DNA from: a virus
Taxonomy: Duplodnaviria; Caudoviricetes
Reading direction: 5' to 3' (one strand)
IMG/VR virus record: IMGVR_UViG_3300024346_000005
Length of the DNA stretch: 64,000 bases
The notes under the pieces are model-generated. The model did no database searches, was not told the origin of the DNA, and was given only the letters and a program-made list of their open reading frames with translations. This document shows positions 8,160 through 62,670 of the stretch, one piece after another. Made by a program: the position numbers and the translations under genes. The stretch's first letter is position 1. The number at the start of each line of letters is the position of its first letter.

Positions 8160-8207
8160 GTCAAGGCAACTTATAGGTCTTATATGTTGCTTCAAGGCAA
8201 CTTTTAT

Positions 8208-8280
8208 GGGCGGATAATTTAATTGGTCAAAATGCTCTGCTTATAACGGAGTTATGAGGGATCATGGCCCTCTCTGCCTA
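8208..8280 (+). tRNA. tRNA-Ile(TAT)
   Basis: Cloverleaf: GGGCGGA/TCTGCCT acceptor stem, CTCTG-CTTATAA-CGGAG anticodon arm, GAGGG/CCCTC T-stem. No encoded CCA. Confidence 0.85.
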
Positions 8281-8313
8281 TTGACCATAATGACTCTTTG
8301 AGTTATAATGGTC
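8281..8313 (+). promoter_or_regulatory. sigma70 promoter embedded in a hairpin between the tRNAs
   Basis: TTGACC-17-TATAAT (8281-8309) within the inverted repeat GACCATAA...TTATAATGGTC. Confidence 0.6.
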
Positions 8314-8323
8314 TCATACACAA

Positions 8324-8405
8324 GCCCCCTTGGCGTAATTGGTAGCCGCTACGGATTTAAAATCCGTTGACTTTAGTCGTGCCGGATCGTACCCGGCAGG
8401 GGGTA
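8324..8405 (+). tRNA. tRNA-Leu(TAA)
   Basis: GCCCCCT/AGGGGGT acceptor stem, ACGGA-TTTAAAA-TCCGT anticodon arm, long variable arm, GCCGG/CCGGC T-stem. Confidence 0.88.
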
Positions 8406-9413: not shown

Positions 9414-12400
9414 ATGGGATTAAACAAACTTGATAATTTTATAAAGAACACAGAAGGTCGCATTCTTTATGTTTCTCCAAGTGACCTTGATTCTACTGAT
9501 AGTATTAGTAATCAGGGTAATTCACTTGCTCAACCCTTCAAGACGCTACAGAGAGCACTTCTAGAAGCAGCAAGATTTTCCTATCAGAGAGGAAATAGTA
9601 ATGATGATGTAGAGAAGACTACAATTCTCTTAATGCCAGGAGCACATACGGTTGATAACAGACCTGGTTTTTCTATAAAAACTGTTGGTACTACTGCAAC
9701 AGTAACATCTCCAAGTGGGGCAACATCTGCGGCATCAAATACCTTATCACTTACACTCAATTCAGTATTTGACCTCACACAAGACGATAATATTCTTTAT
9801 AAGTTCAATAGTGTTAATGGTGGTGTTGTTGTACCCAGAGGAACCTCAATCGTTGGTCTAGATTTAAGAAAGACTAAGATTCGTCCAAAATATGTTCCGA
9901 ACCCAACAGATTCTTCTGTTCCAAACTCGGCAATTTTTAGAATTACCGGTGCCTGCTATTTCTGGCAGTTCTGTATCTTTGACGGCAGTACAGAAGGTAC
10001 GGTATATACTGACCCAACAGATTTTTCCGTCAATAACAAATCAATCCCAACATTCTCCCACCACAAACTCACATGCTTTGAGTATGCAGATGGAGTAAAT
10101 CTATATGAAGATACAGGTCTTACTGACTTGGATATGTATTATGCGAAACTCTCTAATGCATTTAATCTTGCATCTGGTAGAGACATCGATCAAAAGTATC
10201 CTGCCGATCCTCTTGGTTTTGAGAAGCAGAGGCCAGAATGGGAGATTGTAGGTGCTTTTGCCGCAGATCCTATTAAGATTTCTACAATTGAGTCTGGGTC
10301 TGGTGGAACCGCAAGTAGTCAGGTTACGGTCAAAACTTTAGTACCTCACGAACTCTCGGCAGGAACTCCAATTAAGATTAGTGGAGTTTCTCCGGAAAAC
10401 TATAATATCTCAACAAAAGTTCAGAGTATTAGTGATACGGACCCAACTGTCTTTACATATCTTCTTCCAAATTTCCCACTCAATCTAACAACACCAGGAA
10501 GTGCATCTAGTGCATTTGTAACAATTGAGACTGATACCGTATCCGGAGCATCTCCATATATCTTTAATATTTCATTGCGTTCCGTTTATGGTATGAATGG
10601 AATGCTTGCCGATGGTAGTAAGGCATCGGGTTTTCGTTCGATGGTTGTTGCACAATTTACTGGCGTATCTCTACAAAAAGATGACCGTGCATTTGTAAGA
10701 TATAATCCAACAAATAGAGATTATTCTGACAATATTGCCATCTCCAGAGTTGCCGGAGCAACTTTATCTGGTAATTCTTCTTCTACCAGCATAGCATATC
10801 ATCTAGAACCACTATCAATTTATAGAAGTGGATGGGAATCAAGTCACATTAAAGCAACAAATGATGCCTTTATTCAGATTGTTTCCGTATTTGCAATTGG
10901 TTTTAATAAGCACTTTGATTCTGAAAGTGGTGGAGACCTGAGTATCACTAACTCAAACTCCAACTTCGGGCAGATTTCACTTACTTCTTCTGGATTTAAG
11001 AAAGAAGCATTTGATAAGGACAATAAAGCATTCATCACCTCAATTATTGCTCCAAGAGCAATTGTAGGAGAAGAAGATAATATTGATTGGATTTCATTAG
11101 ATGTTGCCAAGATTGATGCACCGAGTAGTAATAACGCCAGACTATATCTATTTGGATTTACTTCTGAAGATGATGTACCACCAGTACTCACTCAGGGATA
11201 TAGAATTGGTGCAAAAGTAGGTGATAAACTATATTTTACTGCAAACGGGACAGAATACTCGGCAAATATTTTAATGTCCGATGGAGTCACAAGTTCTGTT
11301 AAAGAATATTCAGTAACTGGCATCCCATCATCAAATAAATTTACAATTGGATCTCATAATATTCAGACTGGTGAAAAAGTTATTATTCTGAGTGATGATG
11401 GTGATTTGCCAGAAAATATTGTAGAAAATACAGTTTATTATGCAATTGCAAGTGATGTTGACGGTAGTTTAACTGCAAATGAAATTAAACTTGCTTCTTC
11501 ACAATCGGCAGCAGTCAGTGCAAATGCAATTAGCGTTTATAAAGGAACTGGTCTAAGAATTCTGAGTCGGGTATCAGATAAGGTTGCCGGAGATGTCGGG
11601 CACCCAGTACAATATGATGGTACTCAGTGGTATATTACCACAAATGCTAATAGTGGCATTTATACGGCAATCAATTCATTGGGTGTTGCGGGATTAACAG
11701 AAAGAACCGAACCTTCTTATGTAAAGAGAACTGAAGATACCAGAAGTTTGGATGAAAAACTTTATAAGATTAGAGTTGTAATTCCAAAAGAACTTGTGGG
11801 TGCCAAAAACCCAGAGGATGGATTTGTAATTCAAGAATCAAGTTTTACTGGAATTAGATCGGATACTGACATTAATTTATCATCTCTTTCAACATCAGAC
11901 TATGAGTATAACAGAAATCCAAGATTTATTAGTACTTGCTCTTTCAATGAATCTACCAAAATTGTAACTGTTACTTCTGAACTTCCACACAATCTTCAAG
12001 TTGGTGATAGTATTATTATCAAGAATGTAACGGACAGCACCAACCCTGCTGGAGTTGGAAATTCTGGATATAATGGAACCGTTGGGGTTTCATCAGTTTT
12101 TGATGATATGACCTTTAGATATTCTGTAGGAATAACTACTTTAGGATCATTCACAAATGTAACCTCCAACAGAACAACCTCACTTCCAAGATTTGAGAGA
12201 AATGACTTACAAGCAAATCTTTACAATTATAGAAGCGAAGTAATCACTCCATACATTAGTGGTATTCAGGATGGTGTTTATCACATCTATACTTTAAGTG
12301 CCGATAAGGCAATTCCAACAGAGTTCACAAATATTAAGTATAGTCAGAATGTTGTTGATTTATATCCACAGTTAGACAGAGATAATATTAATGATAATCC

Positions 12401-42385: not shown

Positions 42386-42440
42386 TATAAATAAAAATGC
42401 TTATGTGTGTCGTAACCAGAAGCAACGAGTAGCATAAGGA
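42386..42440 (+). ncRNA. Orphan late-promoter / sRNA-like half cassette
   Basis: TATAAATA then ATGCTTATGTGTGTCGT..., like the start of the endonuclease cassettes, but with no endonuclease downstream. Confidence 0.4.
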
Positions 42441-42664
42441 CACTTTCCAAACAGGCACAAGGGCACTTTACAGGTGCCTTTTTTTGATGTATGATACTTT
42501 CATACACAAAGGAACCCGATGACTGACAAACAAAAGATTCAATCCAAACTTAATGTATTGCACGAAGAGTTTGATACTCTTCAATCTCTTGGTGCAACGC
42601 ATAGTGAATTGAATGCGGTGCGGAGGGAGTTAAACATTTACTATGAAATGTTGAGGAAACTACG

Positions 42665-45600
42665 ATGAAAACTTATTTGCTGATTGCTGGAGACAATTAT
42701 TACCCTTCTGCTGATACTGGTGATTGGGTTGGGTGTTTCTCTACCTATGAAGAAGCAAAGGCACAAGTAGAACCCAAAAAAACCAAAGGATATACCGTAA
42801 ATGGACGGGATTGGGGTTGTGATTGGTATGAAATTGTTGATTTGAGAGACTGGATGAACCGATGACGAAACAAGAACTCAAAGAACTTCTCACACCAGAG
42901 TTTCTTTCCACACTTCATAGTGCTGTGGAGTGTTGTGGATGGGATGTTGATATGGTAGAGAGTATGAACTTTTGTGATTGGTGCTATAATGTAGCAGGAC
43001 AACCACTACCAAAATATGATATGAGTTTTGATATGGAGGATGTATGACTACCAAATGCACCTGTTCCTACATTCAAATAGGAACCAAAACTTCAAACACT
43101 CAAAACCTCAATCCAGATTGCCCTTTACACGGAACTGATAGTGTGTGGCATAATAGTCCAGAACAAGTCAAAAAACGAGAGGAGAGGTCGCAACGACTTC
43201 GGGAACTTTATGATACTGCTCGCAAAGCAAGGGAGAACTTGAAATGACTGAAACTATTCAACAACTCAAAGAGGATATTGCTATTCTCCAAGAGAAACTA
43301 CAAAAACTTGAAGAACAGCAACGAACAAAATCACCAGTAGAAGAATGCTACAAAGATTGGTGGGGGCAATATCCTGAATTAGAAACTGACTCCCAGTATG
43401 ATGATACAAGGTGGCAAGGTTTCCAAGCAGGATATGAGTTTGCTTACGCAATCTCTACCGCAAAGGAAGTAATGGAAAAAGTTCAAGAAGAACAAGAAGA
43501 TAATGAATGGAAATCTGTTGCTCTTCGTTTTGGTGAAAAGTTGAGTGGATATTTGAGTGATGGTTATTATGAACTTTCTCCTGCTGCTTGGTTTAGGTGG
43601 GCGGTATTTACTTATGGGAAAGGACAACAAATAAAAGATGCTGTTCGTGAGAGTAAGAAATGGTGTGAAGAAAATCCAGATAAAGACCCATTAGATTGTT
43701 TGAAACCTCAAACACCAGAGCAAGTTGCTGATGGATTGAAAGAAGCATTCAGGGAAGCAGTCAAGCAAGGTGTAGTTTCATCTACCAAACCACAAACTCT
43801 TTATGATGTGATTGCTGACTGGTGGGATGATACATTCACCAAGAAAGAAACATCACTTCAGGAACTTGTGGATGCCATTGAAGAATGGTTGCCGAAAGAA
43901 CAATCTGCCGCTGGGTCTCAAAATGCTTATGTTGAGTGTACTGTAGAAGGTTTCAACGATTGTCTCAATAAAATCAAGAGGAAACTACGATGAGATACCC
44001 ACAATACGCACTTGGATTACTTACTGGATTTTGTCTTGCTTGTCTGTATTTTATGGTGCCTGCTATTCTTGAGAGTTTCAAACAACCAGAAGCACAAGCA
44101 GTTGCAGAACCAGTTGAGAAACATGGAACTTTTACAGTTGTCAGTGAATACAAAGGTTGTGATTTAGTTCAATGGCAATATAATATGCTTTCTGAATACA
44201 AATATTTTCTCCACTGCCCAAAATGATTGAAATTCAAAAGAACTACAAAATCACACTGGACGAAGAACAGGCACGACTATTGTATCATATTCTTGATGTA
44301 ACTGATAATGATAGGAGACAGGGATTGAATGGACTTTATAATGAACTGAAAGGCACTCTCAAAATTGGAATACGATGACTGAATATACTGAATATACTTT
44401 TCCTGCTGATTACAATAAATCAAACACATATACTATCACACAACCAAAACTATCTAACTGGACTTGTTATGCGTTTGGTGGTGATGCTAGTTTTTCTCCT
44501 ATGACTTGGGTGCCACAAGAAGGTAAAGTTCCTAATGCTTGGGTAAGGTTCTGGTCTAAAGTATTTTTTGATTGTAACTGGGTGAAGAACAAATGAAAAT
44601 CACAGCACACGAACTTGCAGTTATTATTGATACTTTCAACCACTCTCTAATGGTATCAAACTGGAATGGAGTATATACTCACAAGTCAAGGGAGAGGGTA
44701 AGGGATTTGATTGCCGACATTATGAATGATATGAGTGTAGAGATTATCACAGACAAAGCAGAATTCACTATTGATGCTGACGCAGGTATTTGAAATGACT
44801 GAACCAACACTAAAAATAGGACCATCAGGATATAAACTCAATCCAGAGAAACTGAAAGGAGCACCTCAAAGTGTTCTTCCTTATATTCTTGGTTGTTTTT
44901 ATTTCACCGAAGATTATGAGTATTTTGATGTAATCAAAGATTATCTTGATATACCTGAACCTTGTAAAACTCTGGAAGAAATATCGCAAGAATTGGATGA
45001 GAAGATTGATGATTTGATTGAGAGAACAAAGAATAGTTTTTATAAGTCAAAGTATATTGCTGAAACTTTGTATGATACAAAGTTCAATAGAATTATTGAT
45101 AACTTTGAGTATGCGAAGGAACACGGACAATTTCCACCTAAACTTACATATTCTAACCTTATTGCGACTGGTAGTAATATTACTTCCAGTTTTGTGATTA
45201 AACAAGGAAATAAACACGAAGGATACTATACATTCGGTAATTGTAGGTCTTTCAAGTATTATATGCCGACTAAACCGAATTTTATAGTCCGTTTCTTTAT
45301 GAAAAATCTTCTTGGATTTTTCTGGGTGGATGAAAAATGAGATACTACGAAACCAGAACTTACGAACACCAAAAGGACTTTGATGAAAAGAACCGAGCAC
45401 AAAAGTATCTCACAGAATACCGAGATAAGTATCTTCATCTCCGTAAGGAAGTTCGTAATCTTGTAAGAGAACAAAACCTTACTATCACTCCTGATTTTGC
45501 TAAACTGATTGGATTGAAATGACCTACCCATCGTATTGTTGTCCTAAATGCGGGGATATGATAGGATGGACTGGAAGGTTCTTTCAGTTTCTTCGTATTC

Positions 45601-60387: not shown

Positions 60388-60460
60388 CCTAGATGAGGAT
60401 TATGCACGAGATTCACATGATTACGAATCACTTGCATATCGTCACTATGCATGATATAAT
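60152..60460 (+). promoter_or_regulatory. Three tandem sigma70 promoters; the first two overlap the palindromes
   Basis: TTGACA-17-TAGAAT (60152-60180), TTGCAT-17-TACAAT (60247-60275) and TTGCAT-17-TATAAT (60432-60460). Confidence 0.7.
60308..60454 (+). CDS. Small Asp/Tyr-rich hypothetical protein
   Basis: MYDDYDLDYTY...; overlaps the palindrome array. Confidence 0.5.
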   Translation: MYDDYDLDYTYTNDHTDLDEYYTSSLDLDEDYARDSHDYESLAYRHYA

Positions 60461-60687
60461 CTAGATACACACACATACACAACGAGACTCCTATGATTGC
60501 CCAGAAGCGCCTTGTACGGGTTACATTAGACATTATGTGTTATGATGACCTAGACCTAGAAACAACCGACTGGAAGGACCTTCTAGACCTCGAAGGTGAC
60601 GAAGATGTCTATGCTAGCATAAGGGAACTCGAACCGTGGATGTAATGTGCCACTTCATTAATTGGCACAAACTTATATAAATAAAAT

Positions 60688-60912
60688 CACTTGAGTTCTT
60701 ATATCATAGAGCAGCACTTGAACTCTCCTGCGGGATACAGAGTCAATCTGACAGAATATAAGAAACCAAGTGAACCTTAAATATCATCTAGGCGGACAGG
60801 GTTTAACTATAGGTTTCCCACGGCGCCGAATATAGCGAACAATCCAATATTACCGAACTGAATATAGTTATCTCGTGTTCTTGAAACGTATCAAGAATAG
60901 GAGGATTTTTTA
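60688..60912 (+). ncRNA. Candidate structured non-coding RNA
   Basis: TATAAATA at 60676-60683, a long stem TCACTTG..TTCTTATAT/ATATAAGAA..CAAGTGA enclosing three hairpins, more hairpins, a terminal stem plus T-run, and no long ORF. Confidence 0.6.
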
Positions 60913-61039
60913 GTATCTGGATATAATGATGTGACAATTCTCGAACTGGCACAGAACCCCTTGTGGAATGCCGGGTGAGGGGTTATTCTACATTCGTGGT
61001 TGAGGAATTCTCTACATTCTCCTCGTCACCCCAAATATT

Positions 61040-62670
61040 ATGAAACTCTTCGTCGCTAAGTTCTACCAAACTCTGATTCTAAATGTTGCTACCATCGCCG
61101 CAATCGTTGTTGGAATTGTACAATTTGGCATTCGTGCTTATAAAGAAAACAACGGCGCAGAAAAGACCCGCAAGGTGATTCAAACCGTGCTGCGGTTCGT
61201 TGATACTATTGTGGGGCAATTGCAGGCATTCGTTGATACTGATGTGCCAGTTGTAAAGGTGGCACCGAAAACTACCAAACGCCGCTGATTGGTGGTATTC
61301 TACTTTCATACCTGAGGAATTCATGAAACAAACTCATCGGTTCGTTACATTTAAAGAGGCACTTGTGTTTCTAATGAATGAGTTGCAATTGAGTAATCAG
61401 GAGGCAACACATTTCATTTGGGACAATCAGTTTACTATGGGAACTGATCGGGCAATTTGGATTACTATGCCAATCTGAGAACTGTCACAAGGGGGGTTGC
61501 GGTTCCCCCCAAAACCTGATATTCTACTTTCATACCTGAGAAATTCAATGGTTTTCGTCATCTCCGAACTCAACGGTTGCACTTACAAACTGGACGCAAA
61601 CAATCAGCGGGTCCTAATGTATGCTCCGCTGCTATCTGATGGTTCATATGAAACTGCAGGGTCGGCATATGATTGGGTAGAGTGGGACCGTTTAGACCCT
61701 GATGTTCTAGAAGAAGCAGACCGTATTCACAAACTGTTGCTCGCAGAGGTGTAATTATGAACTACGATAATTTCTGGAAGAACGTATTAGGGCAGGAAGA
61801 TTGGGTTAATGAACTAGTCAAATGGGAGAATGCTCATCCAGAGTATACACCCTTTCAAGAAGATAAAGACTCTCAACGCCAACAAAACACCAAACAAATC
61901 TAGATGACAACTTTTCTCACCAAAGCACAACGCCAAATCTTGATTGATTGGTATATTGACTGCCTGATTGATACTGAGTCTGAGTTTGTTGATGGTAGTG
62001 AAGAAGCAGAGCGTCAAAGTTTGGCATCGATGAATAACTCTTACTTCTATGAGTACGTTCAGGAGATGATGCCTAACTGTATGGAAGACCTTGCGAAAAT
62101 GAAACAGGATATGACAGTCTGACTAGTGGCACAAGGGGGGTTGCGGTTCCCCCCAAAACCTGTTATTCTACATTCATACCAAACAAATCCAAATGAAAAT
62201 TATCTGCTCCAAACCTAATGCTAAGGGTGGATATCACGATGTTGGTATGACTCACCGTAGGTTGACTGGTGATTATTCAACCGTACGTAACTTCATTCGT
62301 TATGGTGTACCTAGTGACTTCTATGGTAACACTCTGCGGTTGGAAGTCTTCTACGGTGAGAATATCTATCGGGCACCAGATAAAGTGTTGTATGTGACAG
62401 TCTAGAAAGTGTCACAAGGGGGGTTGCGGTTCCCCCCAAAACCTGTTATTCTACATTCGTACTCAAGCAATTCACCAAATGACATTCGACCGAGCACAAC
62501 TAGTTGAAGATTACATTCAACAACTTATTGAGGGTATGGATTATAAAACTATGGAGTGTCTGGTTTATGATACTCTGAAGGATAATCTCTCGGATTATAC
62601 TGATGAGCAACTCATCACAGAGGTTACAGAATACAATCCAGAACTGTTGGAGGATGTGCCAGTGGCATAA
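61040..62670 (+). other. Single-gene early cassettes (61040-61288, ~61548-61754, 61904-62122, 62193-62405, 62479-62670)
   Basis: Most ORFs are directly preceded by their own dyad plus TATTCT promoter. Confidence 0.7.

Follow-up and report, generated by a model that had tools for sequence, protein, structure and literature searches.

Two small genes, at 60493-60645 and 61040-61288, flank a non-coding interval in a stretch of viral DNA of 64,000 nucleotides (IMG/VR record IMGVR_UViG_3300024346_000005; the whole stretch analysed is called the window below). The interval contains, in order, a copy of an early-region dyad, a T4-type late promoter box, a long hairpin, a second structured domain, a linker, an intrinsic terminator and a second dyad copy (Table 1). 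About 225 nt without an ATG follow the promoter box, and the longest open reading frames in the element are 29 and 21 aa on the plus strand, with TTG/GTG starts, and 49 aa on the minus strand, none of them conserved. On the plus strand the minimum free energy (MFE) of folding was -55.8 kcal/mol, compared with -44.0 +/- 4.4 for shuffled sequences (z = -2.7), and the minus-strand fold was less exceptional (z = -1.9). The preliminary description had proposed a structured non-coding unit bounded by a T4-type late promoter and an intrinsic terminator; this outline was borne out by covariation among homologues, by the lack of an Rfam match and by the strand specificity of the promoter motif. Its promoter box, upstream early-type dyad, terminator-like stem, closing stem and lack of a long open reading frame all stood, whereas its interior helices, apart from one in the middle domain, did not.

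Table 1. Features of the RNA unit and its borders, with examples of late-motif sites elsewhere in the window.
Feature	Position	Strand	Basis or remark
Early-region dyad, upstream copy, TGTGCCA-N10-TGGCACA	60646..60669	+	Read in sequence; left cassette border
Late promoter box, T4-type, TATAAATA	60676..60683	+	Sequence match
5' domain, single long irregular hairpin	60684..60779	+	MFE fold, CM, covariation, RNAalifold
P1a	60688-93 with 60767-72	+	MFE fold, covariation
P1b	60696-704 with 60756-64	+	MFE fold, covariation
P2	60712-14 with 60748-50	+	MFE fold, covariation
P2b	60718-21 with 60743-46	+	MFE fold, covariation
P3	60723-25 with 60740-42	+	MFE fold, covariation
P3b	60726-28 with 60733-35	+	MFE fold, covariation
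UGCG tetraloop	60729-32	+	MFE fold, homologue alignment
Middle domain, helix P4 and inner hairpin	60791..60827	+	RNAalifold alignment of window-type relatives
Variable linker	60828..60871	+	Alignment of window-type relatives
Intrinsic terminator, 12-bp stem and U6	60872..60911	+	Fold and alignment
Dyad, downstream copy, TGTGACA-N10-TGGCACA	60930..60953	+	Right cassette border; part of next early promoter
Late-motif sites in the window, examples	9378, 15040, 57022, 8810, 17147, 24488, 38053, 55820	+	Motif scan

The box TATAAATA is separated by 4 nt from the first paired base of stem P1, and the same box and spacing recur in relatives. A core-only scan of viral contigs, in which the promoter lay outside the search pattern, recovered further members from different genomic surroundings; with a single exception, which reads CTATATAA, the members found in this promoter-blind way carry TATAAATA, CATAAATA or ACTAAATA upstream at a fixed distance. 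ATAAATA occurs 21 times on the plus strand of the window and never on the minus strand, and the tail-fibre and tail genes at 9414, 15065 and 57053 are each preceded, at 24-36 nt, by NATAAATA (also given as CATAAATA). NATAAATA has been reported as the late promoter of cyanomyoviruses (PMC2984593). Because the motif is strand-specific, precedes tail genes and equals this reported promoter, late expression of the element is probable on sequence grounds. A scan for sigma-70 promoters listed none at 60640-60690.

Contigs from RNA libraries bear on transcription more indirectly. Metatranscriptome contigs of three studies (X19, X22 and X23) covered 60631-60995 and left the next open reading frame without cover, and RNA-library run X21 gave no cover over 60631-60995. 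The contigs come from relatives, cross the promoter, show neither transcript ends nor strand and may derive from DNA or from read-through; their cover is a weak hint of transcription. One X23 contig joins 60464 directly to 60676; in this relative the 50-aa gene and the dyad are absent, so that the TATAAATA box follows the preceding gene.

The MFE fold and covariation agree that the 5' domain comprises an outer stem (P1), conserved internal loops and an apical stem with a UNCG tetraloop at its tip. The closing stem proposed earlier is real, at about 15 bp (CACTTG/CAAGTG plus TTCTTATAT/ATATAAGAA), on the evidence of both fold and covariation. The four-way junction that it was thought to enclose is replaced, in the MFE fold and in the covariation alike, by one coaxial hairpin, and instead of the suggested AGAG/CTCT, CTG/CAG and GTCA/TGAC hairpins, which were unsupported, the interior pairs CAG/CUG, UUGA/UCAA, CUC/GAG and UCC/GGA and closes with the UGCG loop. 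Two bulges, one a single A and the other of 4-5 nt, and an internal loop rich in purines (AUAGAG / ACAG) interrupt these helices. Alignment of homologues reveals a near-invariant core, CTTGAAYTCTCC-TNCG-GGA, in which the tetraloop is UGCG, UACG or UUCG and thus varies at N alone, and near-invariant junction nucleotides lie between stems that covary freely. The apical hairpin is the only part common to all four subfamilies; the GAGCAGC/CUGACAG junction is common to subfamilies A and B and is not kept in C and D.

Downstream of this hairpin, helix P4 joins GGCG (60791-94) to CGCC (60824-27) and encloses the hairpin GGGUUUAACUAUAGGUUUCCC (60799-60819). In 16 window-type relatives the inner hairpin is invariant and P4 pairs covary (CG 8, UA 7, AU 1; GC 13, UA 2). 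Three short hairpins had been suggested for the 3' part of the element. The GGG..AAC/GTT..CCC hairpin was upheld by the alignment, being invariant among window-type relatives; for CGC/GCG there is a competing helix, GGCG/CGCC, which has better support, and AACTG/TAGTT is specific to the window and not conserved. The CGCC segment could pair either with the upstream GGCG or with a downstream GCG (60835-60837), and at loci L274 and L278 all three segments change together (GGUG/UACC/GUG and GGCG/UGCC/GCG). Read by eye, the middle-domain alternatives suggest two mutually exclusive helices.

The middle domain is also exchangeable, the window-type hairpin module being replaced by an H-type pseudoknot module in other members. 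The type-B pseudoknot (L218, L223, L232, L255, L147, L150 and others) lies about 110-160 nt into the RNA and consists of GAGGGAG...UCUCC followed by an AAUAAAA linker; the 3' part of its loop pairs with a downstream tetramer (CCUG with YAGG, or NCGG with UCGU). Two of its pairs covary between the two groups, and the stem also has a compensated variant, GAGAGAG/CUCU.

In the alignment of window-type relatives, conservation is lowest in the single-stranded linkers. The long linker has a 16-nt deletion in relatives, and GAAUAUA stands directly before the terminator. The terminator stem (CUC.UGUUCUUGA / UCAAGAAUA.GAG, 60872-60903), which includes the GTTCTTGA/TCAAGAA(T) pairing noted previously, is followed by GA and by U6 at 60906-60911; its predicted strength is -15 kcal/mol, and one of its pairs covaries in the 16 window-type sequences (UA 11, CG 4). 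A simple terminator scan missed it because its G-C pairs were too few for the scan rule. Other subfamilies have a hairpin and U-run, found by script or by eye, 165-300 nt downstream. The bases just past the U-run (60906-60920 in the window) are unusually alike across subfamilies, reading UUUU(A/G)GU(A/G)UCUGG, UUUUGUUGUAUC or UUUUAGUGCGUAU.

The structure supplied to the first model, CM R1, was taken by hand from the MFE fold of the window, whose own 5' domain scores 98.9 bits with it. Realignment (A3, 37 distinct sequences) gave a rebuilt model, R2, and then alignment A4 of 101 hits, 73 of them distinct. CM alignments are fitted to their model and the pair counts therefore lean towards it; with this in mind, 88.7% of the pair cells in A4 are standard pairs, a share that falls to 32-45% after a shift of the 3' partners by 1-3 columns, changes occur on both sides in 26 of 31 pairs, and the covariation score was reached by none of 500 shuffles. 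Individual positions are informative: P3 pair 42/63 is CG in 38 sequences, UA in 32 and GC in 2, P2b pair 37/71 is UA in 50 and CG in 23, and the P1 pairs show three to five pair types each. A plain MAFFT alignment of all subfamilies misaligned the freely varying outer stems, so that RNAalifold recovered the tetraloop stem only. Independent MAFFT alignment and RNAalifold folding of 16 full-length window-type sequences returned the same 5' domain, together with the P4 hairpin and the terminator.

The well-aligned inner helices contain 25 G-U cells and no A-C cells. This imbalance fits transcription of the plus strand, with which the UNCG tetraloop, the promoter box and the terminator also agree. 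In P1, A-C cells cluster at columns 5/104 and 16/92, and the outer stem is partly out of register in the alignment for distant subfamilies. Neither strand offers a protein-coding explanation. Plus-strand frames across the core are broken by stops in 60, 69 and 80 of the 81 unique members and minus-strand frames in 70, 79 and 67 of them, relatives differ by indels of 1, 4 and 16 nt, and no reading frame that would mark a small protein gene is conserved among the 81 unique homologues on either strand. ARAGORN found no tRNA or tmRNA at the element; the window's only two tRNAs lie at 8207-8405. A DNA-level likeness of TCTGACAGA to an upstream palindrome array was considered and dropped, the palindrome not being kept in other subfamilies. 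At 42386-43244, long plus-strand open reading frames are likewise lacking over about 850 nt after another TATAAATA, and the family CM finds no match there. On this evidence the element is very probably a genuine structured RNA gene, single-copy and independently transcribed, with a non-coding product of about 225-230 nt.

Both flanking small genes recur in many IMG/VR contigs. Among these, the element is present in four at 96.5% identity and in six at about 75%, and in many others the two genes stand about 112 nt apart and the element is absent. Scanning metagenomes with the core added 92 stretches; in total the strict core pattern has 154 instances and 81 unique sequences, and searches of viral and metagenome contigs with the 5'-domain CM yield 101 copies, 73 of them distinct. 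When four members (the window, S-SRM01, L150/L155 and L159) were used as blastn queries against 50,697 deposited phage records, the Synechococcus phage S-SRM01 was the sole carrier. Its copy (86512-86605, minus strand; 35 bits with R1 and 52.7 with R2) occupies an unannotated gap, with the dyad and TATAAATA ahead of it and ...GTGGTTTTTGTTGTATC at its end. The CMs did not match phages S-SKS1 and S-T4.

The gene is single-copy: a complete relative of 233.9 kb has exactly one copy, and the window gives a single CM match and no second copy. A candidate second copy in L264/L139 (11893-11987) was rejected as false, since this 39-bit match lies inside a coding region and has no core; CM E-values are rough. 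When the core pattern was run over one genome for each of 185,579 prokaryote species, the only match was a phage contig. This 3343-nt contig (JBMTBW010000058.1, L306), filed under a Candidatus Nanopelagicaceae MAG, has the full dyad-promoter-RNA-terminator-dyad unit and a cyanophage early promoter, and is almost certainly a mis-binned phage contig. The family, with at least 81 sequence variants, was found across freshwater, estuarine and marine samples and is specific to T4-like cyanophages (Kyanoviridae-type).

In the alignment with RNA-less relatives (A6), a block of 284 bp (60646-60929) is either wholly present or wholly missing; besides the RNA with its promoter and terminator it holds one copy of the dyad and a TATAAT-like box. 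Three relatives (L020, L005 and L011) have no block and retain a single ATGTGACA-N10-TGGCACA, and the same alignment assigns the upstream dyad copy to the inserted block. The genes downstream have an early promoter of their own (TTGTGG-17-TATTCT), which ends at about 60988 and includes the downstream dyad. A cassette pattern of this kind, termed PeSL, has been described for T4-type phages (PMC2839356, PMC4122927). The 284-bp unit is flanked by repeats, relatives keep one repeat, and it thereby conforms to the PeSL type; like PeSL cassettes, it is accessory and sits in the hyperplastic early region between two promoter/stem-loop copies (PMC2839356, PMC4122927). However, PeSL cassettes carry protein ORFans under early promoters, whereas here a non-coding RNA with a late-type promoter forms the cargo, and the repeat, a TGTGNCA-N10-TGGCACA dyad, differs from the PeSL described. 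Comparison of 60601-61060 with the window itself gave matches limited to this recurring intergenic dyad/promoter motif, downstream of 60930.

The orientation of the RNA relative to the same neighbouring gene is not fixed. It follows the neighbour in the window type, converges on it in S-SRM01 and subfamilies C and D (for example in S-SRM01, L176, L186, L196 and L199) and precedes it elsewhere; where the two converge, a bidirectional terminator lies at the end of the RNA. Because orientation varies in this way, the element is read as an independent gene and not as a leader or a 3'-UTR element. A gene for a small acidic protein (phrog_12516) always lies within about 2 kb of the RNA gene, in three arrangements (for example 60493-60645 in the window, +274..489 in L150 and, on the opposite strand, 625..822 in L175). 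The RNA is present at only about 10 of the 72 loci retrieved with the phrog_12516 protein.

Comparison with known RNAs argues for novelty. At gathering score, Rfam 15 matched two tRNAs elsewhere in the window and nothing at the element, and at E <= 10 on 60400-61200 it returned only chance-level mir-509, STnc630 and S15 hits of 12-18 bits; seven loci of other subfamilies likewise gave no match at the element. The preliminary description had left open whether the element was a manA, wcaG or PhotoRC motif, and none of these, nor any other Rfam 15 family, was matched. Cyanophage RNAs listed in the literature searched are CfrI, PhotoRC-II, wcaG, manA, glnA and abiF (PMC9964418, PMC2984593, PMC2864571). 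The manA, wcaG and PhotoRC-I/II motifs, the glnA riboswitch and abiF are likewise structured RNAs of T4-like cyanophages that came to light through comparative genomics (PMC2864571, PMC9964418), but they match the window RNA neither in sequence nor in structure. Furthermore, the cyanophage motifs known to Rfam are mostly cis-regulatory leaders, unlike this promoter-to-terminator unit of variable orientation. CfrI of S-PM2 is also a non-coding RNA of about 225 nt from a T4-like cyanophage (PMC2984593). It runs antisense to a homing-endonuclease gene and psbA, a description that sets the window RNA apart: the minus strand at 60676-60912 has no psbA or endonuclease gene, only the non-conserved 49-aa reading frame. 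A survey of IMG/VR from 2023 gave 8,495 predicted short structured RNAs, all unnamed (PMC10690425), and a fragment of the window RNA may already be among those candidates. From the sequence comparisons, the RNA family is apparently uncatalogued.

More distant parallels can be drawn with small RNAs of other phages and of cells. T4 encodes two structured small stable RNAs of unknown function, rnaC and rnaD (species 1 and 2), which are processed from the tRNA cluster transcript. These and the window RNA are stand-alone structured small RNAs of T4-type phages; however, the window RNA has its own late promoter and terminator, shows no tRNA-like features and lies far from the tRNAs at 8.2 kb. The pRNA of phi29, 6S RNA and Y RNAs are possible functional analogues, with internal loops between stems serving as protein-binding surfaces by analogy, and have neither homology to the window RNA nor an Rfam match there. 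We know of no requirement for RNA in packaging by T4-type phages.

The explanation that we favour, and regard as reasonably likely taken as a whole, is a late trans-acting structured RNA gene for which protein binding is the most likely mode. The gp55-type late machinery would transcribe the RNA late in infection, and the product would accumulate as a stable small RNA. It would then act in trans through its UNCG-capped apical hairpin, A-bulge, 4-5-nt bulge and purine-rich internal loops, as a scaffold or decoy that binds or sequesters a protein of phage or host. The protein-binding mode in itself is put forward tentatively, and base-pairing with mRNA appears less likely than that. Recognition of a folded surface is favoured over seed pairing because the apical hairpin is shared, the modules are swapped and the linkers are the least conserved parts. 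A base-pairing sRNA made late, which would use AUAGAGCAGC, ACAG or the pre-terminator linker to pair with host or phage mRNAs and alter their translation or stability, is accordingly judged unlikely. It would account for the promoter-to-terminator layout and the A-rich/GAAUAUA single strand before the terminator, both typical of bacterial sRNAs, and for the constant proximity of the phrog_12516 gene. However, the most conserved nucleotides lie in helices and internal loops and not in an open seed, the single-stranded linkers vary most, and complementarity of the RNA to the phrog_12516 start region at 8 loci was no better than in shuffles (z -0.7 to +2.7). The strong terminator and the separate early promoter of the downstream genes make it very unlikely that the unit is a cis-acting, riboswitch-like leader or attenuator gating late read-through into early-region genes, despite its co-orientation with the downstream genes in the window and in subfamilies A and B and the two covarying partners of CGCC (60824-27), which look switch-like by eye. 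Moreover, the convergent copies of S-SRM01 and subfamilies C and D end at a bidirectional terminator and would have nothing downstream to regulate.

Near-invariant junction nucleotides between freely covarying stems could belong to a new class of catalytic or self-processing RNA, and the patchy distribution as a repeat-bounded cassette could belong to an RNA that serves cassette mobility. This is highly improbable, given that no known ribozyme family matches, that the GAGCAGC/CUGACAG junction is lost in subfamilies C and D, and that dyad-dyad recombination explains gain and loss without any activity of the RNA (PMC2839356). A decayed homing-endonuclease cassette was first suspected because six of the eight TATAAATA boxes in the window precede homing-endonuclease genes (five GIY-YIG and one HNH), and an HNH gene lies 800 bp upstream of the element. 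The remnant was rejected when 60601-61060, compared with the whole window by blastn and tblastx, showed no similarity to those genes. The broader proposal, that the element does not function as RNA and is such a remnant, a spacer, a small-peptide gene or a DNA-level site, is largely refuted and in our estimate barely credible: the fold is maintained by compensatory changes over 73 distinct sequences, no open reading frame is conserved, and UNCG loops and G-U pairs are features of the RNA level. The endonuclease-linked TATAAATA boxes are mostly placed after a terminator hairpin.

To our knowledge, few non-coding RNAs are known from cyanophages and almost all of them are cis-regulatory leaders. 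The RNA described here contrasts with these as a stand-alone structured molecule that is apparently expressed late. It is conceivable, if doubtful, that the late trans-acting RNA favoured above represents a new viral RNA class with a specific biochemical activity, either as the subunit or decoy of a late RNP, which could for example neutralise a host nuclease or defence protein, or as a ribozyme or ligand-binding fold with swappable modules. The presence of a copy in the cultured pair S-SRM01 / Synechococcus sp. KCZYC6 makes such proposals directly testable. For the biology of these phages, the cassette-like gain and loss within the hyperplastic early region suggests that the gene has an accessory role in the interaction with the host, and PeSL-type shuffling can move RNA genes as well as protein ORFans.
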